From the NCBI GenBank assembly GCA_016201065.1, contig JACQDL010000011.1, forward strand, positions 13,772 to 77,771: a stretch of 64,000 bases of DNA. The letters are read 5' to 3'. The translations under genes and the position numbers were made by a program. The stretch is from Actinomycetota bacterium. GTDB lineage: Bacteria > Actinomycetota > Actinomycetes > Mycobacteriales > JACQDL01. Below, one piece after another: positions 2,792-19,252 of the stretch. Position 1 is the stretch's first letter, and each line of letters opens with the position of its first letter. The notes below the pieces were generated by a model that was not told the origin of the DNA, ran no database searches, and was given only the letters and a program-made list of their open reading frames with translations.

Positions 2792-3328
2792 GTGAGCTTG
2801 GCCGAGGACCTGCTGGCCGACGGCGAGCCGGAGAAGGAACACCACGCAGGGATCGCCACCCGGCAACCCCGCAAGCGGGTCGCTGGCGGTGCCCTCATCC
2901 ACGACGGCTCCGGTCGGTTGCTGTTCGTGATCCCCAATTACAAGCCCGGCCTGGAGATCCCTGGTGGCATGGCCGAGGAGAACGAGTCACCAGCCGCCGC
3001 GTGCCGCAGAGAAATCCGTGAAGAACTCGGGCTTGAACTCGACATCGGCGAACTCCTCGTCGTCGACTGGCTCCCCGCCCACGGCGTCTGGCCCGACGGG
3101 CTCATGTTCCTCTTCAACGGCGGCGTGATCGACAGTGTTGCCGCCCCAGGTATCGCCGCGAGGGATCCCGAGCTCGACGGGACCGTCTTCATGCACCTCG
3201 CCGACGCGGCCCCCCGTCTGCGACCCTCCATGATGCGTCGCCTCACCACCGCACTCGACGCCCTCCGTGACGGACGTCCCCGCTACGCCGAATTCGGGCG
3301 GAGCGGCCTGACCCAGCCAACCGAGTGA
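2792..3328 (+). CDS. NUDIX hydrolase
   Basis: Nudix box GX5EX7REUXEEXGU seen as GGMAEENESPAAACRREIREELGL. 178 aa, GTG start. Confidence 0.85.
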   Translation: MSLAEDLLADGEPEKEHHAGIATRQPRKRVAGGALIHDGSGRLLFVIPNYKPGLEIPGGMAEENESPAAACRREIREELGLELDIGELLVVDWLPAHGVWPDGLMFLFNGGVIDSVAAPGIAARDPELDGTVFMHLADAAPRLRPSMMRRLTTALDALRDGRPRYAEFGRSGLTQPTE

Positions 3329-3791
3329 CGCTCCAAGATCATCGCCGCCAGGTGCCACAGCCACCGGGACGCATCTGCCGGTAGGTCGGCCACCGACGCC
3401 CGGGGCGGTCGTGCCGCATGCCGGGCCACGATGCGCGCGGGTCGCCACAGATGCGTCCGTCCGACCGCCAGGTCAGGCGCCGGCATCAGGCCGTGCCCTT
3501 GGTAGCCGCACCAGCCGAGACCGAGACGCCGCAAGGGTGCGAGCAGTAATTCGGTGGGGTGGAAGTCCTCACGGACTCGCGCACGGATCGGACAAATTGC
3601 CGTACGGTGCCGCGACCCTCGCGCCGATGCGTTGACCTTTTCAATGACACGCACCGGACATTGACCGGTCGTGTGCCGGACGTTGGAGGAGTCCGTCCCG
3701 GTTCCGTGGAAGCCGGTGACCGTGTGGTCCGGTTCGGTGGTCGTACCGTTCTCGCGCCCACGGGACCGGACCAACCCATGAGGAGGGGTGA

Positions 3792-4267
3792 ATGAGCGGA
3801 CCGGTGTCGTATACCACCCGTTTGGCCACCCTTCTCGCCGGTCGACATCAGACCCGTGAAGAGGTCCTGGCGGATTTCCACGAGTGCGCCCGGCAACTCG
3901 CCGGGGCGGCGACCCTGTCGCTGCGGCAGTTGGATCGGTGGCTGGCCGGGAGGATGACCGGCCTGCCCCGACCCACCGCCTGCCGGGTGGCCGAGGCCAT
4001 GTGGGGCGAGCCGATTCAACACCTGCTCGCGCCCCCGGAGCCCGAACCGTCGATCCACCCGGCCCCCCGGGTGTTGGACCGTTCGCGGAGCGGCCTGCCC
4101 TCCGGGCTGCTGCCGTTGACCCCGAGCTGGTGCCGCGCTGGCACAAGCTCGGGGTGTTCGCCGTGTCGGAGAACCTGTTCGGGCCGCAGCACCCGACCAG
4201 CACCGTCATGCGGGAGCTGGCCGTCATCCGCATTGAGTCGACCGCGATGTGCAGGAACTCGTCATGA
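3792..4267 (+). pseudogene. Truncated/frameshifted HTH regulator remnant (paralog of the N-terminus of the 1389..2744 protein)
   Basis: Strong SD (gaggagggg) lies before ATG 3792. The first ~85 aa look like an HTH (LSLRQLDRWLAGRMTGLPRPTACRVAEAMWG). The frame then degrades, and protein-like sequence continues in the frame of ORF 3884..4267 (AVDPELVPRWHKLGVFAVSENLFGPQHPTSTVMRELAVIRIE). It ends convergently against the E1 gene. Confidence 0.35.
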
Positions 4268-5737
4268 CGTGGAGTGTCGGTTGCGCCGTGCGCGGACGTC
4301 TTGGATGAGTTTGGCGTCGGTTTGACAGGTGCAGTTGTGTCTTGCGTTTCTTTTCTGGACCATGCCTGGCTGCGGTCCGTACAGGGTATCGTATTCGATG
4401 TCTCGGGAGATTGATTCTGGATGGGTGTTGTGTCGGATCAGGGCGCCGACAACGAGGGCTGCAGCTTGTTGCGCGGCGAAGACGATCGATGGCCGGAACT
4501 GCCCGGGATCTGGTCGAGCGGTGAGATCAAGAGCGCGAGCCAAGCCGCACACGGGTCGCCCTAGGTGGGCAGAGAGCAACCGCCGGCTGTTGGGCGACAG
4601 TTCACGGAGGTCATCCTTGGTGAGGGGTAGGTCGCCTCGGGCAATCCGGTCGAGGCGAAGTCCGGTAGCCTGGGCGAGGAGTTGTTCCGCCGATTGTCCT
4701 TTGCTGGATGGCTGTTGCGGGTAGTAGCAGCGCAGGCATGGCCCTGCAAAGGTTGCCTCGGAAAGGCCCACGGTGGTGCCAACGTTTCCGCCGGTGCTGC
4801 CGTCCAGAACCAAGTTGGCGTGCAGTCGGGCGATCTCGTGTCGCGCGTGGATGCTGTCGACCGCCCCGAGGACGGTCCGAGGTGGGGGCTCGTTGCCATT
4901 GTCGACTAGATTGAGGTATTCCAGAGCTCTGATCGGGTGGCGCCGGACGTCTATCCCCGGTAGGTGCTGGACGAGAATGTCCACTTTCGGAAGTCGCTTG
5001 GCTGCGGCGGCGAGGTCGCCGAGACTGTAGGTCGCGACATTCGGTTCCTCGAAGGATTCGGGATCCACGACAGCGAGGGTCCCAGTCGCAGATAGTTCGC
5101 GAAGGATCAACGCGACGGCGGTGCCGATGGCGCCAGCTCCGATAAGAACATGATGATCGAGAATCGATATTTCCGCGGCGACTCCCGGTTCGGCGAGAGT
5201 GACGGGGCATAGGTCGATGCGGTCCCGTTTGACGTGCCGGTTGGGCGCGAGGTCGATGATCTCCTTGAATACCTCCGCGGCGAGGACGGCGGCGGTGTAG
5301 ACCGACCCCAGTCCGGTGCCGCGGTGAACGGTTGGGAAGGGGTGGCCGGCCCGGCGCAGTCGCACACCGTGGCCGTCGGGAACACCGCTGATGCCAGCGC
5401 CTAAGGGCGTGGTCCCGACGTGGACGTGTAGGTCGGTGCCGGTACTGCGCCCGAACTGGAGTGGGCGGTCAGGGTCGATGCCGGCGGCAAGTGCGGCAAG
5501 GTCGTCCAAGACCGCTCCACGAAGGTTGGAAGCGCGCGGATCGAGGCGCACGGTGATCGGGAGCCGGCGAAGGTTGCCTATCAGGACCTGCAGACATGAC
5601 AGCTGTCCTGGATCCGCAGTAACACAGACGGTCGTGGATTTCAATCGCTCCTGTACATTGGAGGGCCGGTAGGTGCCTTGTGTGGCCAGCCGTAGCGGGC
5701 GACTGTAGTCAGTGGGCACGTACACCGCCCGCGTCAA
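4262..5737 (-). CDS. E1-like ThiF/MoeB-family adenylyltransferase (BilD-like)
   Basis: Rossmann nucleotide loop HHVLIGAGAIGTAVA. ThiF-like core with cysteine pairs GPCLRC and CTC. ~490 aa with an extra N-terminal domain. Last gene of the overlapping Ubl-E2-JAB-E1 operon. The annotated start is TTG at 5737; alternative GTG starts are at 5725 and 5719. Confidence 0.85.
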   Translation of the reverse strand: MTRAVYVPTDYSRPLRLATQGTYRPSNVQERLKSTTVCVTADPGQLSCLQVLIGNLRRLPITVRLDPRASNLRGAVLDDLAALAAGIDPDRPLQFGRSTGTDLHVHVGTTPLGAGISGVPDGHGVRLRRAGHPFPTVHRGTGLGSVYTAAVLAAEVFKEIIDLAPNRHVKRDRIDLCPVTLAEPGVAAEISILDHHVLIGAGAIGTAVALILRELSATGTLAVVDPESFEEPNVATYSLGDLAAAAKRLPKVDILVQHLPGIDVRRHPIRALEYLNLVDNGNEPPPRTVLGAVDSIHARHEIARLHANLVLDGSTGGNVGTTVGLSEATFAGPCLRCYYPQQPSSKGQSAEQLLAQATGLRLDRIARGDLPLTKDDLRELSPNSRRLLSAHLGRPVCGLARALDLTARPDPGQFRPSIVFAAQQAAALVVGALIRHNTHPESISRDIEYDTLYGPQPGMVQKRNARHNCTCQTDAKLIQDVRARRNRHSTS

Positions 5738-6194: not shown

Positions 6195-6625
6195 GCTGCG
6201 CGTCGTCCTCCGGCCCGGTGGATGTCAGCGTGGAGGTTCTCCACCACGAAGAGGAAGGGGTTGCCAGTAGTTCGCCATACGTGTGGGCCGGACCGCCACT
6301 CGGGGTGCAGCCCTTGACCTTCGGCGGTGAACGGCTTGCACACATCGGTGGGCGCCCGATAACCCGGCGCCGACGGCCACGCCGAGGTATCGGTGGTAGC
6401 ACCGCCCGCCTCGACTGCGAATAGAACCGAGGGTGGCAGGTCGGGATAGAGGTTCCAGGCGATCCGGGCAACGAACGACGCGTGGCCATCGGGTCCGGCG
6501 ATCATCACCCAGTACAACCCGTCGGGGTCGCTGTCTCTGAGCACCAACCGTCCGCCGGCCCCGGCCAGGAAGTCCGCGACCTGGGTGGCATCCCGGTTCA
6601 GGCGCAGCTGGCTCTCCAGATCCAT
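6191..6625 (-). CDS. Prokaryotic E2/UBC-like protein (BilB-like)
   Basis: 144 aa, located between the Ubl and JAB genes. Candidate catalytic Cys in APTDVCKPF, followed by HPEW. An SD-like AGGTGA lies 7 nt upstream of the ATG. Confidence 0.7.
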   Translation of the reverse strand: MDLESQLRLNRDATQVADFLAGAGGRLVLRDSDPDGLYWVMIAGPDGHASFVARIAWNLYPDLPPSVLFAVEAGGATTDTSAWPSAPGYRAPTDVCKPFTAEGQGLHPEWRSGPHVWRTTGNPFLFVVENLHADIHRAGGRRAA

Positions 6626-6632
6626 GCCTACG

Positions 6633-6923
6633 TCACCTGGATCCAGAGATGGTCTCGGTCCGCAGCGCCAGTTTCACTTGGTGGCCGTGGCCGTGACCAC
6701 CTCTCAGGTCATCCAGAAATGTCCCGGCATCGACCTCGCTGCCGTCATGGAGCAGGTAGTACCGGGTCGTACCGTCGGCCGCAATCCCGAAGGCGGCCAG
6801 GGCGTCCGACAACACCTGTCCAACGGTCGTGGCCTTCGGGTACTCGTGCTCGTAGGGCCTGGCGGCTGCGGCGAAGGTGACGACCACCTCGACGTGGTGC
6901 TCTTCGTGGGCCTGCAGGGACAT
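6633..6923 (-). CDS. Ubiquitin-like beta-grasp protein (BilA-like / multiubiquitin-type, single domain)
   Basis: 96 aa, first gene of the operon, with strong SD ggaaggag. The pattern HVEVVVT...TTVGQVLSDALAAFGI...YYLLHDGSEVD...QVKLAL is typical of prokaryotic Ubl domains. The C-terminus is ...TETISGSR, with Gly two residues before the end. Confidence 0.65.
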   Translation of the reverse strand: MSLQAHEEHHVEVVVTFAAAARPYEHEYPKATTVGQVLSDALAAFGIAADGTTRYYLLHDGSEVDAGTFLDDLRGGHGHGHQVKLALRTETISGSR

Positions 6924-6940
6924 ATGACTCCTTCCGAGGG

Positions 6941-7031
6941 GCCGACAGCGTCGGCACTACTGCATCAGCGAAGTTGCAACGACACTTTGGCACGACGATC
7001 TGTTGCACGCAAGCGGCGCCGCACGTACTGT
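6941..7031. promoter_or_regulatory. Divergent promoter/operator region between the Ubl operon and the XRE gene
   Basis: Palindrome GCCGAC-agc-GTCGGC at 6941-6955. GTTGCAAC palindrome at 6973-6980. GTTGCACGCAA (TTGC-N2-GCAA) at 7002-7012. On the plus strand, -35 TTGCAC (7003-7008), a 17-nt spacer and -10 TACTGT (7026-7031) end 6 nt before ATG 7038, which suggests a leaderless transcript. Confidence 0.35.
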
Positions 7032-7037
7032 GCGTTC

Positions 7038-7562
7038 ATGCCGGTGGAGGGCACCGACGGGACGTCAGCAGACGACCGCGATGACTGGGTCGGGGAGGTG
7101 GAGCGCCTCGACATCGGTGCGCTCGGGCAGATGCTGCGTGAGCGCCGGGCGGGGCTTTCTATCCGGCAGGCCGCTCGGGACGCCGGGGTGAGCTTCAGCA
7201 CCTTCGCCCGGGTCGAAGGCGGCGCGCAGCCAGATCTGGCGACGTTCGCGAGACTGTGCGCCTGGCTGGGGGTGTCCCCGGCGAGGTTCTTCACCCCAGT
7301 CGTGGAGCGTGAGACATCTCCATTGGAGGACGCCATCACGCACCTGACGGGCGACCCCCGGTTGTCTGCGGTTACGGCGGGCAGGATCGCAGGAGTGTTG
7401 CGGGACATGTACGAGGCGCTCGCCCGTGACGCCGCACCACAGCCGATCATCGCCTGTCACCTCCGGGCTGCACCCCTCCTCCGCCCCGGGGTCGCCCCGC
7501 GCTTGGCTGCTCTCCTCACAGATCTGCATGACGAACTCCAGCGGCAGGTCGAGGCGCGGTAG
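7038..7562 (+). CDS. XRE-family HTH transcriptional repressor (CapH-like)
   Basis: Internal ATG at 7038 of ORF 6585..7562. HTH seen as LGQMLRERRAGLSIRQAARDAGVSFSTFARVEGG. Lies immediately upstream of an ImmA/IrrE peptidase gene (3-nt gap). Confidence 0.8.
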   Translation: MPVEGTDGTSADDRDDWVGEVERLDIGALGQMLRERRAGLSIRQAARDAGVSFSTFARVEGGAQPDLATFARLCAWLGVSPARFFTPVVERETSPLEDAITHLTGDPRLSAVTAGRIAGVLRDMYEALARDAAPQPIIACHLRAAPLLRPGVAPRLAALLTDLHDELQRQVEAR

Positions 7563-7564
7563 CT

Positions 7565-8122
7565 GTGACCCTCCCCCGAGGCTTCAAGGCCACTGCTGAG
7601 CGTGAAGCGACTCGTATCCGCCACGAAATGGGCGTATCAGAGGGTGACCCGGTCAATATCCTGTCCGTTGCGGAGCACGTCCAGGCCATAGTGGTGGGCG
7701 CCGACCGGCTGGTCGCCATCGAACGACTCGAAGAACTAGAGCGTCTTCAGGCATACGCTTTCTCGGCCGCAACATTCGACGTCAAGGGCAAGTCATACAT
7801 CGTCACCAATCCGCTCAGGTCTCGAGGGCGCCTAGCCAGCGACGTCGCCCACGAGATCGCGCACCTGCTCCTGCAACACGACCTCACTGAGATCCGCGAG
7901 ATCGAGGGCGTCCCATTTCGTACGTGCCGGCCAGATGAGGAAGAGCAGGCCACAGTGTTCGGCGGAACCCTCTTGTTGCCACGTCCCTTGCTCCTCAATG
8001 CCGCCAGGCGCGGCCTGGGTCCCGAACAGATCGCCGTCGCCTATGGTGTCACCACCGAAATGGCCCGATTTCGGTATACCACCACCGGCGTAGCCAAACA
8101 GGTTCTCCGCCGACCGCGGTAA
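7565..8122 (+). CDS. ImmA/IrrE-family zinc metallopeptidase (CapP-like)
   Basis: HExxH motif in VAHEIAHLLLQHDL. 185 aa. Paired with the upstream XRE gene. Confidence 0.85.
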   Translation: MTLPRGFKATAEREATRIRHEMGVSEGDPVNILSVAEHVQAIVVGADRLVAIERLEELERLQAYAFSAATFDVKGKSYIVTNPLRSRGRLASDVAHEIAHLLLQHDLTEIREIEGVPFRTCRPDEEEQATVFGGTLLLPRPLLLNAARRGLGPEQIAVAYGVTTEMARFRYTTTGVAKQVLRRPR

Positions 8123-8141: not shown

Positions 8142-9523
8142 CACGGGATCGGCAAGTTGGCGTTTTAGGGCGCGAAGATGCTTGTTATGGTCGCATGTCT
8201 TGTTTGACGTAGGGACGGCTTGCTGGTAGCGGTTTCTCTGATTCATGGGGATGGCCTCTAGCCCGGCATGATCACGGGTACCGAATCCTGATCTGACCGG
8301 AACAAGAGGCCATCCATGTCAGTGTCGCACGCCCGCGAGTCCGCCATGACCAACACCGACGGGGAGGCACCTGGCCTGCTGGATGTGCTCGCGCAGGTCC
8401 GGGACCCGCGTAAGAGGCGCGGGCGCAGGTTCGGCCTGGTGTTCCTGCTCGCGGTGGCGGTGGCGTGCGTGCTGGCCGGGGCGAAGAGCTTCCGGGAGAT
8501 CGGCGACCATGCCGCCGACCTGCCGCAGGACGTACTGGCCCGGCTCGATGGGAGGCCGCATCCGCTGCTGCGGCGGATCACCGTGCCCAGCGAGACACGG
8601 ATCCGCACCCTGGTCCACGCCATCGGCGCCGATGCCCTCGATGACCTGGTCGGGGGCTGGCTGCGGGCCCTGGTGGAGGCCGGCCGGTTGGACGGGCTGC
8701 TGAGGGCGATCGCGATCGACGGGAAGTGGCTGCGTGGTGTCGCCGACGGGCAGGTGAAGCTGTTCGCCGCGATGCTGCACGAGGAGAAGGTGATCATCGC
8801 CCAGCACCGCATCCCGGACGAGACGACCGAGACCACCCAGGTCAAGGAGTTGCTGGACGCCGTGGACCTGGACAACGCGGTGGTCACCGCCGACGCGGCC
8901 CACACCCAGCGCGAGACCGCCCAGTACATCGCGGGCAGCAAGGACGACGGGAACCGCGGTTGGCGACTACTTCCTGTTCCTCAAGGGAAACCAGCCGACC
9001 CTGCAGGCCGCGGTCTTCGACGCCATCCAACACGGCGGCCCCCGCGACCCGGACCACACGGAACTGGACCACGGCCATGGTCGGATCATCCGCCGCTCCA
9101 TCTGGGTCACCGACGCCGGGGACCTGGACTTCCCGCACGTGTCCCAGGTGGCGCGGATCCGCCGCGACCGCTACGACCTCGACGGCACCCTGATCAGCAA
9201 GGAAATCGTGCACGCCGTCACCAGCCTGAAAGAAGACCGCGCCACGGCCGTGGACCTCGCAAGGATCGCCCGCGGCCAGTGGGGCATCGAATCGGCGCAC
9301 TGGCTACGCGACACCACCTACGCCGAAGACGCCAATACCGGATATGCCGGGAATGGTCCGCAGGTCATGGCCACCTTCAGGAACATCGCGGTCAGCCTGC
9401 TCCACATCGCCGGCGTCACCGAGATCACCCGCACCCTCCAGGCCATCGGACGCGACCGAACCCGCCTACTCAACTACCTACCGATATGAGACCAGTATCA
9501 CAAACGACTTTACCGATCCCGTG
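8142..9523 (+). mobile_element. ISAs1-family insertion sequence (1382 bp) with 10-bp target site duplication
   Basis: Terminal inverted repeats are CACGGGATCGG(C/T)AA at 8142 and its reverse complement ending at 9523. Flanking direct repeats ATGCTGCAAG lie at 8132-8141 and 9524-9533. It encodes an ISAs1/H-repeat-type transposase. Confidence 0.85.
8316..9489 (+). pseudogene. ISAs1-family transposase, frameshifted
   Basis: The N-terminal part is in the frame of ORF 8316 (LLDVLAQVRDPRKRRGRRFGLVFLLAVAVACVLAGAKSF...TADAAHTQRETAQYIAG). The continuation (GDYFLFLKGNQPTLQAAVFDAIQ...WGIESAHWLRDTTYAEDA) is in the frame of ORF 9139..9489. A single-nt frame change lies near 8960. Confidence 0.8.
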
Positions 9524-9584
9524 ATGCTGCAAGCACCTCAACCTCACCGGCCCAACCGTCGCGACCTGTAGTGCCGGCACCGTC

Positions 9585-9672: not shown

Positions 9673-11235
9673 TCATACTTGCCGGAGTCGTTCGATCTGC
9701 CGTTCGAGGTTGATCAGATGGGTGGAGTGCGGGCCGTAGGTGATGCGGAACGCGGGCCTGAGTTCCTCCAGTACGGCGCGGGCCTCGGCGGTGCGTTGCT
9801 CCGTCGCCAGCATCTGCGCGATGACGAACCTGCTCTCAAGCACCCGTTCGGCGTTGTCCGGGTCATCGGCCTCAACGTTGCTGGTGAAGTAACGAAGATG
9901 GGCGAGCGCGGGCGCGGGTGCCCCGATTTCGGCGTAGGCGTGCCCCGCGTGGTAGGCGCACTCCAGCACCCTCGGGTGCGACGCCACCAGACCCCCAGCA
10001 CGGTACCGTTTACCAGCCCCGGCTAGGAGGGCGGCAGCGCGCCGGTACTCGCCGACGTAGAACAGGGCCAGCCCGAGCAGTTGCTGGAGTTCCAGTTCGA
10101 AGAACGGGTTGGCTGAGGAGCGTCGCAGTCCCGCTTCGAGCAGTCGCACCGCGCCGGTGTTGTCGCCACTGTCCAGCAGTGCGGCGACCGAAACGCGGAT
10201 CTGCTCGAACTCGGCATCGGTCAACGGTGCGCCACCGCCAGCGGGTTGGCGCGGTGGAGGTGGGGCGAGCAATGGAGTTCGGAACGGCCGGGTCGGGTCC
10301 CGGTTCGCACCACCCACACCCGCCCCTGGGGTGTGGGTGAAGGTCACCAGCGTGCGGTAGACCTGCTCCGCCGACGGGCGGCTGTCGGGGTCCTTGGCGA
10401 GCATCGTGTGGAGGAGCTGCTCCACCGGTTCGGGAATGTCCGCCCGGGTGGCGCGCGCCGACGGGGCCGGGGACTGGATGTGGTGGGCGCGCAGCGAGGC
10501 GTTCGGTGTGTCCAGGAACGGTGGGTCACCAGTGAGCAACTCGAACATCAGGCAGCCGAGGGAGTAGATGTCTGAGGCGGCGGTGACGGCCCGCCCCAGG
10601 TGTTGCTCGGGCGACATGTAGGTCGGGGTGCCCACGGTGCGGTCCACTTGGGTCAGCCGCGGTAGCGCGCCCGCGCCGCGCAGGATCGCGATGCCGAAGT
10701 CGAGGACCTTCACCACGCCGCCGTCGATGACCATGATGTTGGCGGGTTTGATGTCGCGGTGGACGATGTCGACCCGGTGGACGTCTGCCAGCACGGCGGC
10801 GATCTGGGCGCCGATCGCGGCGGCCCAGGAGATCGGGGGCGGTGCGGCCTCGTAGTCGGTCCGGTCGAGGAGCCCTTCGAGGGTGGAGCCTCGCAGCAGT
10901 TGCATGACCAGCCAGATCCGGGTGGAGCCGTCGGGTTGCTCGTCAATGCCGGTGTCGTAGACCGCCGGGGTACCGGGGTGTTCCAACTGTGCCGCGGTTC
11001 GGATCTCCCGGAGGAAGCGGGCACGGTCGCGTTGTTGCGCGTCGAGTAGTTCCTGGGCCTCGGGTCCATCCCCGGTGCGGGCGTGGGTGGGTTGGCGGAG
11101 CATCTTGATGGCGATGGCTCGGTCGAGGCGCTCGTCGTGGCCGTGGTAGACCTCGCTCATCCCGCCGCGGCCGAGCAGCGCGTCGACACGGTAGCGGCCG
11201 CTGAGCAGGTGTTCCGGCTCGACCTCTGGCGTCAT
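9673..11235 (-). CDS. Hanks-type Ser/Thr protein kinase with C-terminal TPR-like domain
   Basis: Kinase motifs AIKML (VAIK), HRDIKPANIMV, DFGIA and GTPTYMSPEQ. A Pro-rich linker precedes helical repeats (LLGLALFYVGEYRRAAALL..., YHAGHAYAEIG...). The ATG overlaps the hsdR stop (ATGA at 11232-11235). Confidence 0.9.
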   Translation of the reverse strand: MTPEVEPEHLLSGRYRVDALLGRGGMSEVYHGHDERLDRAIAIKMLRQPTHARTGDGPEAQELLDAQQRDRARFLREIRTAAQLEHPGTPAVYDTGIDEQPDGSTRIWLVMQLLRGSTLEGLLDRTDYEAAPPPISWAAAIGAQIAAVLADVHRVDIVHRDIKPANIMVIDGGVVKVLDFGIAILRGAGALPRLTQVDRTVGTPTYMSPEQHLGRAVTAASDIYSLGCLMFELLTGDPPFLDTPNASLRAHHIQSPAPSARATRADIPEPVEQLLHTMLAKDPDSRPSAEQVYRTLVTFTHTPGAGVGGANRDPTRPFRTPLLAPPPPRQPAGGGAPLTDAEFEQIRVSVAALLDSGDNTGAVRLLEAGLRRSSANPFFELELQQLLGLALFYVGEYRRAAALLAGAGKRYRAGGLVASHPRVLECAYHAGHAYAEIGAPAPALAHLRYFTSNVEADDPDNAERVLESRFVIAQMLATEQRTAEARAVLEELRPAFRITYGPHSTHLINLERQIERLRQV

Positions 11236-14200
11236 GGGGTGCCTGTCTGTCTGGTCATCTCCTCGCGGAGCTTGGCCAACGCTTCATCGCGCGCCGGTTC
11301 GGTGATGATGCGGTAGGCGCGACGGCGGGCGGCCTCCTTGACGGTCGCCCGGAACTCTGGGTTGTCGAAGTAGTTCTTGGTGAAGGTGGTGTTGCGGTCG
11401 GCGTTCTCGGCGACGAGGTCGTCCAGGCGATCGTCTGCGACCTGCCCGAATCGGTCTTCGTCGTTCATCAACGCGATCTGCTGCATGCCGGTGTCTTGGA
11501 CCAGGCCGGTGATCTGCTGGTAGATGAGGATCTCATCGGAGGTGCCCAGGCCGAGGCCGAACCGGTCGTTGAGTTCGGCGATCACCTCCGCCAGGGGCGC
11601 CATCTCGGGTTCGTGGCGGCCACCGCCGTCGGCGGCGTGGCCCCGCACGTCACGGTCACCGACGGCGGTCAGAGACACATCGTGCTTGCCGGTGAACTCC
11701 AACCGGAAGTGGGTCAGGTCGGCGTCGCCGACGTCGACCGCGGTCGAGGGGCGCCCCGGCAGGCGGACCAGCAGGATCCGGCCGTACTGGTAGAGCCGCT
11801 CCAGGTCGGGATCACCCCAGTCGATGATCTGTGCGAGCAGGCTGTAGGCACGCAGATAGGTCTGCAGGGCGCTGCGGAAGCCCTCACGCTCGTCATCGGT
11901 GTCCAGTGCCCGGAACCGGTCGACCGCGGGGGTGAGGTACTGGTGCAGCCGGGCGTGGAGCTTCTTCTCCGCCGTGGCCGGCAGCCGGTCGGGTCCCGCT
12001 TCACCGAGGACCCGCAGGAACGCCTGCATTTCCGAGGCCGCCAGCAGCCCGTACTCCATGACTTCGCGTTGCTTGTCGTAGAGCAGGTTGGGGTCGGCGG
12101 GCTCGGTGATCGTCGTTTCGAACCAGTCCTTGAACGCCTCCTGGATGGTGGCGGCGTCGTTGACGAAGTCCAGGATCCGTACGTCGTCCTGGGCTTTCAA
12201 CGGGTGGATCCGGTTGAGGCGCGACAGGGTCTGCACCGCGGCGACACCTGTCAGGGGCTTGTCGACGTACATGCCACACAGCAGCGGCTGGTCGAACCCG
12301 GTCTGGTACTTCTCCGCCACGACCAGCAACCGGTACTCCTCCTGGTCGCGGGCAGGAGCCTGCGGGTCGTCGGCCTTGGTGTAGGCGAACCGGTCGGGTA
12401 GTTGCGTCTCCCCGAACCCGTTCAGCTGCGCCTCGGTGTACTCCACCCCGGTGGACTCCTCCGTCAGCGACCCCGAGAACGCCACCAGCACCCCTAGGTG
12501 GTGGCCGCGTTCGTGGACGTGCCGGCGGATCGCCTGGTACAGGTCCAGGGCGTCCTGCCGGCTGCCGGTGACGACCATCGCCTTCGCCCGCCCACCCAGC
12601 CGGGGCTCGATGTCCTCCTGGAAGTCCTCGACGATCAGCTTGGCCTTCTGCGCGAGGGAGTTGGGGTGCCGTAGCGCCATGCGCACCAGCTTGGCTTTCG
12701 CCTTGGCCTCATCGACGTCGGGGTTGCTGATCGCCGAATCAAGCTGGTCGAGGGCGGCATTGCGCAGCCGCCACTTGGTGTCGTAGGTGAGGTAGTTGGC
12801 CAGCACGTCGAGGATGTAGCCCTCCTCGATCGCCTGGCGCATCGAGTACACGTGAAACGGCACGTACATGCCTGGTGTCGCATCATGCGGGTTAACCCGG
12901 TCCGGGTCCCAGGTGCCGAACAGCTTCAGGGTTGGTGACTTCGGGGTGGCGGTGAACGCGAAGTAGGACAGGTTCGGTTGCCGGCCCCGCACCCGGGTGA
13001 GGTAGGTGGCCTCGTCCTCCTCCTCATCCGCTCGGGCAGCGTTGACGCCGAGGGCCTGCTTGAGGCGGGTCGCGGCGTCCCCACCCTGGGAGGTGTGTGC
13101 CTCGTCGATGATCACGGCGTAGCGGCGACCACCCAAACCCGCGCCGGCGATCTTGTCCAGGATGTAGGGGTACTTCTGCAGCGTGCTGACTACGATCTTG
13201 GATGTGGCGTCCTCCAACGCGGCGGCGAGCTGGGTCGAGTCATCGTCGATCGTCTTGACCACACCGGGTTCGTGGTCGAACTGGAATATCGTCCGCTGCA
13301 ACTGCCGGTCCAGCGCGGTCCGGTCGGTGATCACCACCGTCTTGTGGAACACCGGGTGATTGTCGTCGTCGAAGAGGCTCGACAACCGGTGGGCCAGCCA
13401 GGCGATCGTGTTGGACTTACCCGAACCTGCCGAGTGTTGGATCAGGTAGTTGCTGCCCGCGCCGTGCGTGCGGGCGTGCGCGACCATCTTCTGCACGGCG
13501 TCCCACTGGTGGTATCGGGGGAAGATCCGGGGCGTGGTGTGCGGGCTGACCCATACCCCCTTCTTCTCCGCTTCCTGGACGTGCACGAACCGTTGTAGGA
13601 TCTCCAACCAGTTGTCCCGCTGCCAGATCTGCTCCCACAGGTACCCCACCGCGTAGCTGCCGGGCTCCGCCGGCGGGTTCCCGGATCCCCCACTCACCCC
13701 GGGGCCGCGCGAACCAATGTTGAATGGCAGGAACTGCGTGTCCTCACCCGCAAGACGGGTCGCCACGTATGCACGGTCCGGGTCAGCCGCGAAGTGAACC
13801 ACCGCACGCTTGGCGAACAACAGCTCGTTCGGATCTCGGGAACGGTACTGCGCGATCGCATGATTCACGTTTGTTCCAGTATTGGGATTCTTTAGCTCCG
13901 CGGTCGCCACCGGAATACCATTCACGAACAGGACAACATCAACCGACTTCTTGCGATCCCGGGTACTGAAGTGCACCTGCCGCGCCACGGTCAGGATGTT
14001 CGCGCCGTATTCACGCAACGCATCCGCAGCGAGTGTGTGACCGGGGCGGAAGTAGGCCAGATCAACCAGGATCCCCCGATCCTTCACACCGTAGCGGAGC
14101 ACATCGAGCACACCACGAGCATCCACCTCGGACGCCACACGCTGCGCGAACCGTCCCCGCGCCTCGGCCGCACTCCCGTAGAGCTCGACCAGCCTGTCCC

Positions 14201-14360
14201 AGCTCTCTCGCTGGCTCCCCCCGATGAACCGGAACAGCTCAGTGATATCCAAACCCAGATCCGCCTGGTACGTACCCTGGGCCATCACCCAGCCGCGTGC
14301 AAGCAGCTCGTACTCTGCACGTCCCTCAAAGCCACGCTCCCAATGCGCACCGGGACTCAT
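11232..14360 (-). CDS. hsdR: Type I restriction enzyme R subunit
   Basis: 1042 aa. Walker A HSAGSGKSNTIAW, DEAH box VIIDEAHTSQ, and the N-terminal nuclease region typical of HsdR. The ATG overlaps the stop of the reconstructed hsdS. Confidence 0.95.
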   Translation of the reverse strand: MSPGAHWERGFEGRAEYELLARGWVMAQGTYQADLGLDITELFRFIGGSQRESWDRLVELYGSAAEARGRFAQRVASEVDARGVLDVLRYGVKDRGILVDLAYFRPGHTLAADALREYGANILTVARQVHFSTRDRKKSVDVVLFVNGIPVATAELKNPNTGTNVNHAIAQYRSRDPNELLFAKRAVVHFAADPDRAYVATRLAGEDTQFLPFNIGSRGPGVSGGSGNPPAEPGSYAVGYLWEQIWQRDNWLEILQRFVHVQEAEKKGVWVSPHTTPRIFPRYHQWDAVQKMVAHARTHGAGSNYLIQHSAGSGKSNTIAWLAHRLSSLFDDDNHPVFHKTVVITDRTALDRQLQRTIFQFDHEPGVVKTIDDDSTQLAAALEDATSKIVVSTLQKYPYILDKIAGAGLGGRRYAVIIDEAHTSQGGDAATRLKQALGVNAARADEEEDEATYLTRVRGRQPNLSYFAFTATPKSPTLKLFGTWDPDRVNPHDATPGMYVPFHVYSMRQAIEEGYILDVLANYLTYDTKWRLRNAALDQLDSAISNPDVDEAKAKAKLVRMALRHPNSLAQKAKLIVEDFQEDIEPRLGGRAKAMVVTGSRQDALDLYQAIRRHVHERGHHLGVLVAFSGSLTEESTGVEYTEAQLNGFGETQLPDRFAYTKADDPQAPARDQEEYRLLVVAEKYQTGFDQPLLCGMYVDKPLTGVAAVQTLSRLNRIHPLKAQDDVRILDFVNDAATIQEAFKDWFETTITEPADPNLLYDKQREVMEYGLLAASEMQAFLRVLGEAGPDRLPATAEKKLHARLHQYLTPAVDRFRALDTDDEREGFRSALQTYLRAYSLLAQIIDWGDPDLERLYQYGRILLVRLPGRPSTAVDVGDADLTHFRLEFTGKHDVSLTAVGDRDVRGHAADGGGRHEPEMAPLAEVIAELNDRFGLGLGTSDEILIYQQITGLVQDTGMQQIALMNDEDRFGQVADDRLDDLVAENADRNTTFTKNYFDNPEFRATVKEAARRRAYRIITEPARDEALAKLREEMTRQTGTP

Positions 14361-14552
14361 GCTACCCCTCGCCTCGCCGTAGTTGCGTCGAGCTGACCGG
14401 TCACGGCGGCAGTTATAACTGCCTGACGGCGTTCAGACAGAAGCTCTCGGAGACGGCCAACTTCATCGCGCAGCGGTCTCGTTACGCGAATCGCATTCCC
14501 GATTTCGCGCTGCTCCATCGGATGAACGCGGGGAACCGCTATGCTTCCGAAA

Positions 14553-16255
14553 GTAAGCAGTCAGGGGTAGGCGGTTTGGGTGGTTACGCTGCGAGAGCGG
14601 ATGCGGTGGTGTTGCGGGGTGGCATCCAGGCGGTGTTGTTGAGGGCGTCGCGGATCGCGTCGAGGGGCCGGCAGCCGTGGTTGCGGGCGGTGATGAGGTA
14701 GGACCGGATGCGGCAGTGGCGTTGCAGGGTGGCCAGGGTGCGCCAGCAGCCGGAGACCTTCTGGGCGAGCTTGAAGCCACGGATCGCGGCTTCGGATCCG
14801 TTGTTCGTGGGGGGCACGTCGGTGCGGGTGGTGAACAACCACACCTGGTCGGTTTTGCGTTTCAGGCGTCTGGCGAGGACCAGACCGGGGTGGTTGCCCT
14901 TGGGCCAGGGCCGGGAGGTGTTGATCGAGATCCCGCAGGCCACGGCCTGGTCGAACTTCTCGCGGGCCCGGGTGATGGCGTCGGCATCCAGGGCGGTGCC
15001 GTTGCGGCGGGTGTGGTTGACGGCGTGGATCGCCACCCGTAGGGCGTCGGCGGCCTGGATGCTCCAGGCCTGGGTGAGTGGGTCGATGTCGGTGACGTCC
15101 TGTAGGTGGCGGAGCATGTGAGCAAGGCATTGCTGCACGCCCGCCAGGCCGGTGTCATAGGACAGGTACCCACCGAAGTCGTCACGAACCAGGGTCCCGG
15201 TGTAGTTGTCCAGTATCGGCGAACGCGGTGATCTCCTTCTTGGTGCGGGTCCCGGCCGCACCGAACCACACCAGGTCCGCCCCACCACCGGTGTAGCCGT
15301 GCAGGGTCCGCACGGTGAACACGTGCGGGTTGCTGATGTCCGCACCCGTCGTGGCGGCCTGGGTGGTGGCGCCGGAGGTGCTGATCGGGGCGGGTGTCTC
15401 ATCGGTGCCCAGCACGTCGGCTTCGCACAGCGCCGCCTTCAACGCCTCCTCGAATCCGGCCCCGCTCAACGCGGCATCCAACCGGGCCAGGCAAGCCGAG
15501 ACGTACCCGGTGGAGACCGGCACCCCCAACAGCGCCGACATCATCTCCGCAGCCCGCTCGACGCCGATCACGTCCTGGGACGCCAGCCATGTCGAGGCCG
15601 CCGCGACCTGCGGGCCATAGCAGGCCGGACCACCCCGCACCCCGACCGGCAGCTCCGCGGTCGTGGCACACCCACACGCACAGACCCGCCGCATGATCAG
15701 GTACTCGGTCACCGTCACCGCCAACACGGGCAGGTCGAACACCTGCACATTGGAGGCGACCGACCCGCGCGCACCGACCAAACTGCCACCACAACCGGAG
15801 CACACGGCAGGCTCCACCGCGTCGGTCCGGTCCGCCTCCGCCACCCGCGCCAGACCACGACCCCGATGCCCCGGCTGCCCACCCTGCTTCCGCTTGACCA
15901 CACCCCGCCCGGGTGACCCCACCGCGTCCGACCCATCGGAGGAGTCGTCCCCGGACCCGGCGCTCCCACCGGGCTTGGCCCTCGCCCTCGACGCGGGCCC
16001 GTCCTGGCTCGGTGGCAGCGACGAGTTCGACGAATCCCGGCCCGCGGCCCGCCGCAACGCGACCAACTCCACCCGCATCGCCTCGATCAGCGCCGCCTGC
16101 TCAGCCAACTGCGCGCTCTGCACCGCGACCAGCGCCACCAACTCCTCATACGAGGCCGGCACGGGCGAATCAGACACGCCCCAGAGTCAAACATGATCAA
16201 ACCCCAGCCAGCAACACCGACCCACCCCAGCTCACCCGGGGGCCTGACTGCTTAC
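14553..16255 (-). mobile_element. IS66-family (single-ORF type) insertion sequence, 1703 bp, 8-bp target site duplication
   Basis: Terminal inverted repeats are GTAAGCAGTCAGG at 14553-14565 and its reverse complement CCTGACTGCTTAC at 16243-16255. Direct repeats TTCCGAAA lie at 14545-14552 and 16256-16263. Confidence 0.85.
14584..16177 (-). pseudogene. IS66-family transposase, frameshifted
   Basis: The N-terminal ORF 15182..16177 has a leucine-zipper-like LAEQAALIEAMRVELVALRR and zinc-finger CSGCGG. The C-terminal ORF 14584..15402 reads DNYTGTLVRDDFGGYLSYD...QQCLAHMLRHL. A single-nt frame change lies near 15213. Confidence 0.8.
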
Positions 16256-17275
16256 TTCCGAAACGCTCCCAATTTCGAAAGTCTATCGCCCGCTCACGAG
16301 CACTGCCACCGAAGAGACTTAGATACCCATCCAGAGCAAGGATACGAAGCAGTCGCCCATAGAATGCGGCATCGCCACTGTCTCGCGGAAGACACACGTG
16401 ATAGACTGGACTGCAGATGCCGCTAGATTCCGAGTCGCCGATAGAGCCAGCGAATCCATCTAATCCATGTACCACTACATCCCCGACCTCGACCCCCTGA
16501 ACATACGGATCAGACTTGGCCGATTCGGTGAATCCGTGCGTCCGCCGCTCGTCGCGCGCTACCACTTGACCGTCACGAAATTCTGACACAATCGAATCTT
16601 GGGTAGCTCGCCGCTGCAACTTCACAATTAGTCGCTTCAGCGGGACGAGATCAGACCCGTCAACGCTGGCAATCTTACTTCGACCGATCACCGTTCGCAC
16701 ACGCGCATCGACACGATCATTGTTTAGATCTACCAGTCGCCGATTGGCCTCTAGCAATCGGTCTATCGCGTCAACCTTGGCGTCAAGGAAGTCGACGATG
16801 CGCTGTTGCTCATCTAGTGGTGGGTGGAGCAGCGGGAGCAAACGAAGTGAGTCCCAAGGGACATCGAACTGAGACGGCGGCATGAACTTCGATATTCTCG
16901 TCAGTTCGGACAAATAAGGTCTCGAAAGAAGCAGATAATTCAGATATCGAGGAGACCAGCCAGAGTTCGGGCGACAGACGTAGTATGCGGGACTAACAAT
17001 TCCGTCTCGGGGAGAAACGCCGAGACCTCCCTGCCAAGTCCGTAGCTTGTTGAACACTACATCGCCGACCCGGACATATTGATACTTGCCGAGGTCCTCG
17101 CCGAGGTTATTGTGGTTGTCCGACCGAGATTCCCTGGGAATCACTCCAGCATTCAGAAATACGGACAGTGGTTCAGCTTCTGGCTTGCCAGTTTCTTGTA
17201 TCCTCCGAGTGGCCACGCAGAGTCGCATCCACCGCCAGCCATCGGGTAGATCAATTTCCTGCAGCACTCCTTGAC

Positions 17276-19252
17276 TCACCCTGTCACCTTGCCCAGCAGT
17301 TTCTGGATCTGCGCCTCCAGGTCCCGCAGTTCGACGTCGATCTCCGCCAGCGGCCGGGGCGGCGTGTAGACGTAGAAGTGACGGGTGAAGGGGATCTCGT
17401 AGCCAACCTTGGTCTTCTCGCGGTCGATCCACGCATCTGGGACATGCGGAGTCACCTCCCGCTGGAAGTACTCCTCGATGTCCTCGTCGAGCGGAATGTT
17501 CTCATAGTCGCGCAGGTCTGGGTCGGGCAGCACCTGGCCCTTGGCCCTTTGCACCTCGCCTTCGGGATCAGAGACTGCCACGGCGCCCCAGATTCCTTTG
17601 AGGATCGACTGGGTCGAAGGCCAGAACACACCGGCCCTACGCCCGGCGGCGCGTAGGGCGTCGCTAGCTTCGGCCTTCGTCCACCACGTCGTGCCAAGGA
17701 GGGGACGTACTGCCCCGAGAAAGGCGTCTCGCTGCTCCCATTTCCCGAGCGGTTTCGCGTGTTCGAGGGCAGCGAGGGTGTCCTCGGTGATCTCGAAGCG
17801 CTGCTTGAGAGGACGCTCAACGGTGATCCGGTGGTAGCCGAAGTCGCGAGTACGGAACACCTTGACCCTCCCGTGGTCGGGGTGTTCGGGGTCGGCCGCG
17901 ATGGCGAGCGCGTTGCCGTAGACGGTGGTGATGTGATCGATCTGGGCGTCGCTGATGAGTTTGCGCTTGTCGCCCAGTGATTTGCGCATCTTTTCCCACT
18001 GGTCCCGGGCATCGAGCAGGATCACCTTGTCGCGCAACACTGGGGATTTGCGGTTGGAGAGGATCCAGAAGTAGGTGGAGATGCCTGTGTTGTAGAACAG
18101 CTGGTCGGGCAGGGCGACGATGCCTTCCAGGAGATCGTTCTCAAGGATCCACTGTCTGATGCGTGACTCGCCTGAGCCAGCGGCCCCGGTGAACAGGGGT
18201 GATCCGTTGAAGACGATGGCGAGACGGCAGCCCTTGCCCTCGATCGGCTCCATCTTGGAGATCATGTGTTGGAGGAAGAGGAACGACCCGTCGTTGATCC
18301 GCGGCAATCCGGCCCCGAACCGACCCGCATGGCCCTGTTCCGCCTCGCGTTCGACAGTGTCCTTGACCTTCTTCCACTCCACCCCGAAAGGTGGATTGGC
18401 GAGCATGTAATCGAACGTCTTGCCCTGGTGCGCGGGCGCGCTGAAGGTGTTACCGAAGGCGATCGTGCCGCGGTGTTCGCTGATCAACATGTCTGCCTGA
18501 CAGATCGCCCACGACTCCCCGTTAACCTCCTGTCCGAACAGGTACACCTCCGCCTTCGGGTTGATCTCCTTGATGCGGTCCTCGGCCGCGGTGAGTATCC
18601 CACCGGTCCCGCAGGCCGGGTCCAGGATGTTGATTACCTGCCCGTCTCCGGCCACCGTGTCCGAGTCCGGTGCGATGAGGAGGTTCACCATGAGCTTGAT
18701 GACCTCGCGGGGGGTGAAGTGCTCACCGGCGGTCTCGTTGGAGTCCTCAGCGAACTTGCGGATCAGGTGCTCGAAGACATACCCCATGTCGTGGTTGGAC
18801 AGCTTGTCCAGGTCCCGCATCGCGGCGAACCGCCCCACGACCTGATAGAGGAGTTTCGCCCCCATCAGGCGTGTGATCTGTTCATCCAGCTGGAACCGCT
18901 TCAGGATGTCCTGGACGTTCGGGGAGAAACCGTTGACGTAGTCGCGGAGGTTCTTCGCGGTTCGGGCCGCATCCGCCGCGATCGACTCGAAGTCCTGGCT
19001 GGAGACGTTGTAGAAGGGTAGCTTCGCCGCGCGGGTCAGGAGCGGATGCTTGTTCTCGATGCCGGCGCTGTGCTTGTTGCGTTCGTGGACCGCATCCCGG
19101 GTCGGCGCCATCACCGAGTCCAGGCGACGCAGCAGCGTGAACGGCAAGATGGCCTGACCGTACTCGTGGCGCTTGTAGTCACCACGCAGCAGGTCGGCAA
19201 CGGCCCAGATCTCGCTGGCCATCCGAGTGTGGCTCGGACCGGAACTGGTCAC
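17276..19252 (-). CDS. hsdM: Type I R-M DNA methyltransferase subunit
   Basis: 658 aa. Motif I ILDPACGTGGIL and motif IV DYMLANPPFGVEW, with an HsdM N-terminal domain. The start overlaps the upstream gene's stop (ATGA at 19249-19252). Confidence 0.95.
   Translation of the reverse strand: MTSSGPSHTRMASEIWAVADLLRGDYKRHEYGQAILPFTLLRRLDSVMAPTRDAVHERNKHSAGIENKHPLLTRAAKLPFYNVSSQDFESIAADAARTAKNLRDYVNGFSPNVQDILKRFQLDEQITRLMGAKLLYQVVGRFAAMRDLDKLSNHDMGYVFEHLIRKFAEDSNETAGEHFTPREVIKLMVNLLIAPDSDTVAGDGQVINILDPACGTGGILTAAEDRIKEINPKAEVYLFGQEVNGESWAICQADMLISEHRGTIAFGNTFSAPAHQGKTFDYMLANPPFGVEWKKVKDTVEREAEQGHAGRFGAGLPRINDGSFLFLQHMISKMEPIEGKGCRLAIVFNGSPLFTGAAGSGESRIRQWILENDLLEGIVALPDQLFYNTGISTYFWILSNRKSPVLRDKVILLDARDQWEKMRKSLGDKRKLISDAQIDHITTVYGNALAIAADPEHPDHGRVKVFRTRDFGYHRITVERPLKQRFEITEDTLAALEHAKPLGKWEQRDAFLGAVRPLLGTTWWTKAEASDALRAAGRRAGVFWPSTQSILKGIWGAVAVSDPEGEVQRAKGQVLPDPDLRDYENIPLDEDIEEYFQREVTPHVPDAWIDREKTKVGYEIPFTRHFYVYTPPRPLAEIDVELRDLEAQIQKLLGKVTG

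Follow-up and report, generated by a model that had tools for sequence, protein, structure and literature searches.

A Hanks-type Ser/Thr kinase with a TPR-like domain as a predicted fifth component of an actinobacterial Type I restriction-modification operon

Why should a Type I restriction-modification (R-M) operon end in a gene for a Ser/Thr kinase? The question is raised by an Actinomycetota bacterium (assembly GCA_016201065.1), in which a gene for a soluble Hanks-type kinase with a TPR-like C-terminal domain directly follows hsdR. The gene lies in a stretch of 64,000 nucleotides (contig JACQDL010000011.1, positions 13,772 to 77,771 of the forward strand), called the window below. Gene order, conserved linkage and shared decay strongly support the prediction that the kinase belongs to a distinct actinobacterial Type I R-M operon as its dedicated fifth component, inherited along with the other four. 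What is new here, judged from the sequences, is that two dedicated accessory proteins, a Hanks kinase among them, accompany a Type I R-M system.

On the minus strand, the genes run 5' to 3' in the order 567-aa protein, HsdM, HsdS (interrupted), HsdR and kinase, with the following features:

19249-20952, minus strand: first gene of the operon, encoding a 567-aa protein with a helix-turn-helix (HTH) segment and a pseudo-methyltransferase (Pfam N6_Mtase, 5.4e-16)
17276-19252, minus strand: hsdM, 658 aa (Pfam N6_Mtase, 2.5e-57; HsdM_N, 9.7e-20)
16264-17279, minus strand: 5' part of hsdS; its GTG at 17279 overlaps the hsdM stop codon (PADLOC Specificity_I, 4.9e-33)
14545-16263, no strand assigned: IS66-family element within hsdS (terminal inverted repeats; Pfam DDE_Tnp_IS66)
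14357-14544, minus strand: 3' fragment of hsdS, encoding the C-terminal conserved helix; its TGA overlaps the hsdR ATG
11232-14360, minus strand: hsdR, 1042 aa, intact (Pfam HSDR_N, ResIII/SWI2_SNF2 and T1R_D3-like)
11232-11235, minus strand: ATGA, in which the stop codon of hsdR and the start codon of the kinase gene overlap, read directly in the sequence
9673-11235, minus strand: kinase gene; its product is a soluble Hanks-type Ser/Thr kinase of 520 aa that ends in a TPR-like domain (open reading frame and translation, ATG start)

All four junctions are 4-nt overlaps (GTGA, GTGA, ATGA and ATGA), and such an overlap at every junction is the signature of a single tightly coupled operon. At the last junction, the ATG of the kinase gene (11235-11233) overlaps the TGA of hsdR (11234-11232) within CCATGACG, so the coupling of the kinase to the hsdR stop codon, as claimed in the initial annotation, is visible in the sequence itself. 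By domain content and catalytic motifs, HsdM, HsdS and HsdR constitute a Type I R-M set. HsdR carries the nuclease residues D...ELK, the Walker A motif GSGKS and a DEAH box, while HsdM has the canonical DPACGTGG and NPPF motifs and matches PADLOC MTase_I (PDLC03029) over its full length at 4.5e-248. HsdR and HsdM both score below their TIGRFAM cut-offs (194.5 vs 284.55 and 84.8 vs 242.75, respectively) and therefore represent a divergent family. The HsdR orthologs are 52-85% identical, and HsdS is 28-64% identical between loci over partial length, as expected for target recognition domains (TRDs).

Linkage of the kinase to these genes was evaluated in a kinase-seeded scan with one genome per species, which yielded 80 loci. 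Seventy-nine of these belong to Actinomycetota, where full-length kinase homologs (59-78% identity) are widespread, and the remaining one is an 872-bp contig binned as Phycisphaerales. Many actinobacterial orders are represented, with genera including Streptomyces, Pseudonocardia, Nonomuraea, Nocardia, Frankia, Kribbella, Glycomyces and Mycobacterium. In 72 of the 80 loci, the kinase gene is directly preceded, on the same strand, by a gene for an HsdR ortholog (52-82% identical). Outside the window, the gap between hsdR and the kinase gene ranges from -21 to about +100 nt, or amounts to about 1 kb where a RhuM-family gene (PF13310; PADLOC candidate PDC-S05) intervenes, as it does in 12 loci, mostly of the Pseudonocardia type:

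RhuM-bearing loci: L004 (8958-9986), L005, L024, L033, L036, L042, L045, L047, L049, L062, L078 and L079

The order of the cassette is fixed as HTH-pseudo-methyltransferase, HsdM, HsdS, HsdR and kinase; in Streptomyces anthocyanicus, Marinactinospora rubrisoli and a soil metagenome, a divergent DUF6119 gene is followed by N6_Mtase, HsdM, HsdS, HsdR and the kinase. Examples of intact cassettes are those of Streptomyces lydicus (CP029042, 7,242,292-7,263,441) and S. anthocyanicus (CP109571, 4,374,251-4,395,837). The eight exceptions among the 80 loci comprise the 872-bp contig, another short contig that has 1.7 kb of upstream sequence (L038), truncated kinase genes and remnants. A truncated RhuM gene and an intact kinase gene occur without R-M genes in L011, and L014 bears an insertion of about 8 kb.

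Look-ups seeded with the restriction proteins also recovered the kinase. The full cassette was present for three of three HsdR homologs, in genomes outside the kinase-seeded set, and an HsdM-seeded metagenome scan detected the kinase in 18 of the 19 close-clade loci with room 3' of hsdR. The nineteenth, a cassette with an intact HsdR (L106, 13143-21968), showed no kinase within 5.7 kb downstream. The assignment of the kinase to the R-M genes in the initial annotation is borne out by these three sets of loci, and the outcome named there as refuting it, namely orthologs that are never linked to R-M genes, is decisively rejected by the kinase-seeded scan. The components also usually decay together: 48 of the 55 loci with an intact kinase gene and enough upstream sequence have intact HsdR and HsdM, and degraded kinases mostly occur alongside degraded R-M genes. 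Among 68 cassettes, the distance matrices of the cassette proteins all correlated with r of at least 0.73, and the kinase correlated best with the C-terminal domain of HsdR (r 0.90; partial r 0.75 given HsdM).

Both the kinase and the 567-aa protein were missing from the available sequence of a sister Type I clade (HsdM 44-48% and HsdR 38-48% identical); that sequence is short in several loci. The two genes were therefore probably gained together by the clade that carries them. The kinase family was not detected in PLSDB plasmids (no match covering at least 80%) or in IMG/VR. The flanks of the cassette are not conserved, as none of six window neighbours recurs in the other loci, and they often hold other defence genes, such as those for AIPR and CHAT-TPR proteases.

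The kinase itself is divided into three regions:

10354-11193, minus strand: kinase catalytic domain, aa 15-294 (Pfam, and residues invariant in 28 homologs)
10228-10353, minus strand: low-complexity Pro-rich linker, aa 295-336, holding the conserved motif RDPTRPFRTPLLA (aa 311-323, nt 10267-10305)
9676-10227, minus strand: TPR-like helical-repeat domain, aa 337-520 (nine modelled helices, NCBIfam match)

The catalytic domain matches Pfam PF00069 (Pkinase) over aa 15-294 with an E value of 1.1e-41 (143.5 bits vs a cut-off of 31.7). We located each of the catalytic motifs listed in the initial annotation, namely AIKML (K44), HRDIKPAN at 159-166 (H159-R160-D161, N166), DFG at 179-181 and SPE at 208-210, and additionally the Gly-rich loop GRGGMS at 22-27 and Glu77 of helix alphaC. 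In an alignment of 28 full-length homologs (59-77% identity), K44, E77, the HRDIKPxN residues, DFG and SPE are invariant, as are the activation-loop threonines T195, T200 and T203, and the mean pairwise identity of the kinase domain is 76%. Based on a Foldseek search with the kinase part of the AlphaFold2 model, which is of moderate confidence only, the closest structure is Mycobacterium tuberculosis PknB (E 1.8e-16; target-normalised template modelling score, 0.76). No transmembrane segment was found by hydropathy analysis: averaged over 19 residues, the Kyte-Doolittle score nowhere exceeds 1.94, a value reached in the kinase core at the beta-strands around DFG. The same measure peaks at 2.81 in the PknB-like protein encoded elsewhere in the window (29850-31664), which has a clear transmembrane segment at aa 340-358; this agrees with the difference between the two proteins proposed in the initial annotation. 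These features predict a catalytically competent, cytoplasmic Ser/Thr kinase of the RD-type Hanks class.

The same annotation had described a Pro-rich linker followed by about 200 aa of TPR-like helical repeats, and this description also holds. The Pro-rich stretch is LLAPPPPRQPAGGGAP (aa 322-337). The AlphaFold2 model assigns the linker a predicted local distance difference test score (pLDDT) below 50; within this otherwise variable, disordered region, the motif RDPTRPFRxPLL is nearly invariant, with D313, P314, P317, F318, P321 and L322 identical in all 28 homologs, and its mean pairwise identity reaches 84% vs 48% for the entire linker. The motif might serve for docking, for autoinhibition or as a phosphorylation site (T315). 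Residues 340-519 are modelled as nine helices arranged in hairpins (pLDDT about 80-97). NCBIfam FxSxx_TPR matches aa 357-506 at 2.5e-5, and many homologs match PF13424 (TPR_12) or PF13428 (TPR_14); the window kinase itself shows no Pfam TPR match at E ≤ 0.01. Because of the NCBIfam match and the Pfam matches in the homologs, describing the domain as a divergent TPR or TPR-like solenoid is justified.

TPR domains serve as sensors in Avs and Detocs. Among 1.84 billion representative proteins, just 125 matches to the TPR domain of the kinase were obtained at E ≤ 1e-3. Ten of the stronger matches were scanned with Pfam, and nine of these are kinase-TPR proteins or fragments, the tenth (P0243, 455 aa) being without a Pfam match; the weakest matches, outside those ten, are long TPR-sized proteins. 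Weak generic TPR matches aside, the domain thus appears private to this kinase family. We rejected the notion of a swappable sensor fused to other effectors, as the domain turned up in this kinase family and otherwise in those weak generic matches. The mean pairwise identity of the TPR domain is 55% vs 76% for the kinase domain, and this faster divergence is compatible with a sensor role without proving it.

The copy of the system in the window is probably defective, because an IS66-family element splits hsdS and parts hsdR and the kinase gene from the upstream operon. The kinase-restriction coupling proposed in the initial annotation stands, but this interruption had been missed. The 1.7-kb element lies about 60 codons before the end of hsdS and is bounded by 21-nt terminal inverted repeats (14545-14565 and 16243-16263; two matches in the window, none expected), and its transposase is encoded in two overlapping minus-strand frames (15182-16177 and 14584-15402). 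The mechanically listed open reading frame at 16197-17432, labelled 'hsdS', runs on into the element. In-silico removal of the element restores a single in-frame hsdS ending in AVITAAVTGQLDATTARRGVA, with a stop codon that overlaps the hsdR ATG. Despite the insertion, hsdR and the kinase gene are still intact open reading frames. We found no sigma-70-like site upstream of these two genes, a scan that is uninformative for actinobacteria. A second insertion sequence (8316-9524, DDE_Tnp_1) lies just 3' of the kinase gene. The GC content falls to 0.58-0.62 over 16-19 kb (the end of the IS66-family element, hsdS and hsdM) vs about 0.68-0.71 around it, which is consistent with horizontally acquired DNA.

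The second accessory protein, the 567-aa product of the first gene, begins with an HTH-like segment, continues with a degenerate N6-methyltransferase fold and ends in an HsdS-like helix. It occurs in all complete cassettes and is evenly conserved rather than hypervariable. In the variants listed (the window protein and 54 homologs), motif I reads DPAC-x-x-A and the Gly loop is missing; at motif IV, most variants have EPPF, whereas the window protein has IPPPS. The protein is probably a catalytically dead, DNA- or protein-binding paralog of a methyltransferase, and we speculate that it might act as a decoy for anti-restriction DNA mimics. A role as a second specificity module was rejected, as the TRD-like part of the protein lacks hypervariability and is without similarity to HsdS. 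Four loci with an HsdM about 69% identical (L136-L139) are without the 567-aa gene; neither hsdR nor the kinase gene was seen in their available downstream sequence, which extends to 8 kb in L137 and to 5.7 kb in L138.

What might such a kinase do for a restriction system? By analogy with PrrC, we tentatively favour, at somewhat less than even confidence, a role as a restriction-coupled second-line effector of the guard type. The kinase would be produced together with HsdR, and its TPR domain would tether it to the restriction complex, or would monitor either that complex or a phage product interfering with it. When restriction is blocked or overwhelmed, the kinase would trans-autophosphorylate its conserved activation-loop threonines and then phosphorylate cellular (or cassette) proteins, leading to growth arrest or abortive infection in a manner functionally like that of PrrC in the EcoprrI locus and of Stk2. 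Profile searches of the cassette proteins revealed no phosphatase, which suits a one-way effector slightly better than a reversible switch.

Several observations weigh against this guard-type role. We infer the target of the kinase, its trigger and the outcome of its activity alike. The kinase domain is highly similar across loci and the TPR domain only moderately variable (76% and 55% identity, as given above), the latter diverging no faster than the pseudo-methyltransferase, so that there is no clear arms-race signature. Intact kinase genes occur beside degraded or missing R-M genes in L011, L014, L044 and L045, and beside the broken hsdS of the window. A guard freed by the loss of its complex would be expected to harm the cell, unless its gene is transcriptionally silent or its activation takes a positive trigger. 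Finally, the mirror-tree signal between the kinase and the HsdR C-terminus is confounded by adjacency, recombination and rate similarity, and we do not use it as evidence of binding.

Alternatively, the kinase may dock through its TPR domain on HsdR or M2S1 and phosphorylate HsdR, HsdM or the pseudo-methyltransferase, thereby licensing or shutting off restriction as a restriction-alleviation, establishment or phase-control device. We rate this close rival only slightly below the guard-type effector, which we prefer. The kinase is made with HsdR (ATGA in the window; in most loci the gap does not exceed about 100 nt), co-diverges most strongly with the HsdR C-terminal domain, and is strictly confined to one R-M clade, in which it was probably gained together with a second accessory protein; its highly conserved catalytic domain suggests a conserved substrate. 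The survival of an intact kinase gene beside decayed R-M genes is what would be tolerated for a harmless regulator. PglW offers a precedent, being required for methylation-based defence in Pgl/BREX type 2. A further precedent is the threonine phosphorylation of EcoKI HsdR in vivo (Cajthamlova 2007, cited in PMC3874165). However, the cassette contains neither a cognate phosphatase nor an FHA reader, sister Type I systems do without the kinase in their available sequence, and no conserved Ser/Thr-rich segment specific to the clade was identified in HsdR.

The two other explanations loosen the tie to restriction. An autonomous single-gene kinase defence of the Stk2/PD-T4-6 type could hitch-hike in the operon, with the TPR domain sensing a phage protein and the kinase killing or arresting the cell independently of R-M. 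The PADLOC PD-T4-6 model indeed matches the kinase at 4.5e-82, and mad6 at 5.5e-66, both over the kinase domain only; RhuM is inserted between hsdR and the kinase gene in 12 loci without displacing the latter, and L011 retains the RhuM-kinase remnant. Nevertheless, the housekeeping PknB of the window (29850-31664, minus strand) reaches 1e-186 on the PD-T4-6 models and 4.4e-78 on mad6, and since it scores higher on the same models, these labels are uninformative. An autonomous module should also shuffle among contexts, whereas this kinase family is essentially never found away from its R-M clade and is missing from the sister clade, PLSDB and IMG/VR within the limits given above; we regard this explanation as improbable. 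Still further from the evidence, and in our view highly improbable, is an ordinary cellular signalling kinase that adjoins the R-M genes by chance or local synteny. Actinobacterial genomes do carry Hanks kinases by the dozen, several of which possess TPR or other repeats, and the housekeeping PknB lies 19 kb away. Yet linkage and gene order are kept across orders while the flanks are not, and these neighbourhood statistics effectively refute a chance association. The patchy, island-like distribution, the GC dip at 16-19 kb and the overlap of the kinase start codon with the hsdR stop point in the same direction, and one recent clonal transfer is excluded by the spread of 45-78% identity among the loci.

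Further genes of the window lie around the operon:

21124-22829, plus strand: DUF6119/TIGR04141 gene, divergent from the operon (likely start ATG 21124; the mechanically listed start is 21018)
6585-8122, plus strand: pair encoding an HTH_31 protein and an M78 (ImmA/IrrE-type) peptidase (weak PADLOC capP and RmrA matches)
3283-5737, minus strand: gene for a ThiF/E1-like 491-aa protein (weak PADLOC E1-E2 and BilD matches), adjoining one for a 316-aa protein

The DUF6119/TIGR04141 protein matches its families at 1.2e-114 (Pfam) and 2.8e-111 (NCBIfam), and its gene lies divergently upstream in 36 of 66 cassettes. It was rejected as an obligatory sixth component and is best seen as a frequent companion, since unrelated DUF2397, NYN, GIY-YIG or SWIM genes take its place elsewhere. 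Its confident AlphaFold2 model (pLDDT 87.7) gave no meaningful fold match in the PDB. The protein has an invariant C-terminal cluster (E434, D437, H447, K449, S458-H459 and Q463), which could be a nuclease-like site. DUF6119/TIGR04141 genes are also present in L169 (10001-11689) and L170 (10001-11686). In Micromonospora, DUF6119 is found together with a protein homologous to the 567-aa one (30% identity, E 2e-45), and the two adjoin an OGG, SNF2-helicase and MmeI-like system.

The HTH_31/M78 pair resembles the CapH/CapP regulators and is convergent with the kinase gene, the insertion sequence at 8316-9524 lying between them. No homologs of this pair were found at the sequence level in the other loci; in L002, a fused HTH_31-M78 gene is situated directly 3' of the kinase gene. 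For the 316-aa protein, neither Pfam nor PADLOC gave a family match, and the match in PHROGs, to a DNA-binding family, was weak (2.5e-5). Together with the ThiF/E1-like protein, it may form a further ubiquitin-like defence module in the island.

Type I R-M is the oldest known phage defence, and its control and backup are understood only in a few Escherichia coli cases (ClpXP-dependent alleviation and PrrC). It is almost an even call whether the cassette constitutes an undescribed, widespread actinobacterial Type I-based defence, in which a DNA-binding pseudo-methyltransferase, together with a Hanks kinase whose TPR domain is private to it, would add a phosphorylation-based layer of sensing or decision. 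A literature search, the coverage of which was incomplete, so that its silence amounts to absence of evidence only, returned no account of a Type I cassette linked to a kinase, nor of what DUF6119/TIGR04141 does. If the proposal is correct, eukaryotic-like kinase signalling would be seen here for the first time as an integral part of a Type I R-M system. With a kinase as constant in the operon as HsdR, a whole actinobacterial Type I clade (in Streptomyces, Pseudonocardia, Nocardia, Nonomuraea, Frankia and others) would use Ser/Thr phosphorylation. Should phosphorylation gate restriction or turn failed restriction into growth arrest, classical R-M would be tied to Pgl/BREX type 2, Stk2 and MADS; one possibility is that the dead methyltransferase is the anti-restriction decoy and the kinase the output. 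The cassette would also offer a handle on what bacterial Hanks kinases sense. Automated annotation would break the locus into 'RM type I' and a spurious 'PD-T4-6', as the PADLOC kinase models are not specific for defence.

How does the cassette relate to known systems? The initial annotation had likened the kinase to Stk2 and PglW, which stands as an analogy and fails as membership, the PglW model NF033442 (NCBIfam) giving 41.6 bits vs 990 and the PD-T4-6 matches being non-specific. Neither PglZ nor PglY domains are found among the neighbours. Membership of the PknB/Stk1 PASTA kinases was rejected (NF033483, 249.7 bits vs 450, over the kinase core only; no transmembrane segment), and so was that of MAD6 (NCBIfam NF047741, 131.7 bits vs 460, generic kinase core only). 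The MADS2 model scores 45 bits vs 720 and the PADLOC mad2 match is partial, reflecting a generic methyltransferase core, and no other mad-family model is matched by the cassette proteins. Gao_RL/MANTIS, which was also considered, has no kinase.

PglW of the Streptomyces Pgl (BREX type 2) system shares with the cassette kinase the setting of a Hanks-type kinase in an actinobacterial, methyltransferase-based anti-phage system, and Hoskisson is said to have reported in 2015 that Pgl needs PglW kinase activity. PglW is, however, about 1,400 aa long, contains other domains and has PglX, PglY and PglZ (a phosphatase) as partners, none of which is present in the cassette, where the partner is a complete Type I HsdMSR set. 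Stk2 of Staphylococcus epidermidis, an abortive-infection kinase, and PD-T4-6 of E. coli are likewise soluble Hanks kinases implicated in phage defence, but they stand alone, without such a TPR domain and without obligatory linkage to R-M. That a kinase can be the effector of abortive infection is an established idea. MAD6 of MADS (methylation-associated defence) resembles the cassette kinase in that its multi-gene defence locus also encodes a DNA methyltransferase (MAD2). In domain layout, the likeness is to PknG of mycobacteria and corynebacteria, a soluble actinobacterial kinase with a C-terminal TPR domain. PknG differs in its N-terminal rubredoxin-like region, its length of about 750 aa and its fixed housekeeping context as a metabolic regulator (GarA/OdhI), whereas the cassette kinase has a family-specific TPR domain and resides in a mobile R-M cassette.

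The restriction part of the cassette resembles canonical Type I R-M systems (IA-IE) in the NPPF and DPACGTGG motifs of HsdM, the variable TRDs of HsdS, and the PD-(D/E)xK nuclease, DEAH motor and helical C-terminal domains of HsdR; it differs in being framed by the pseudo-methyltransferase in front and the kinase-TPR protein behind. Among the accessory proteins of such systems, PrrC and PARIS act as R-M guardians (PMC12707154, PMC3874165). On the current view, PrrC is under the control of the restriction complex and provides a second line when a phage neutralises restriction (PMC3874165, PMC12707154). It is an ATPase-anticodon nuclease rather than a kinase, with no detected homology to the kinase described here, and prrC lies between the M and S genes of EcoprrI (Type IC), not 3' of hsdR. 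For PrrC, the trigger and the masking by the complex have been demonstrated; the likeness of the kinase lies in its gene context. In that context, the kinase gene corresponds to prrC as the gene of an accessory, non-R-M enzyme that is embedded in a Type I hsd operon and co-inherited with it.

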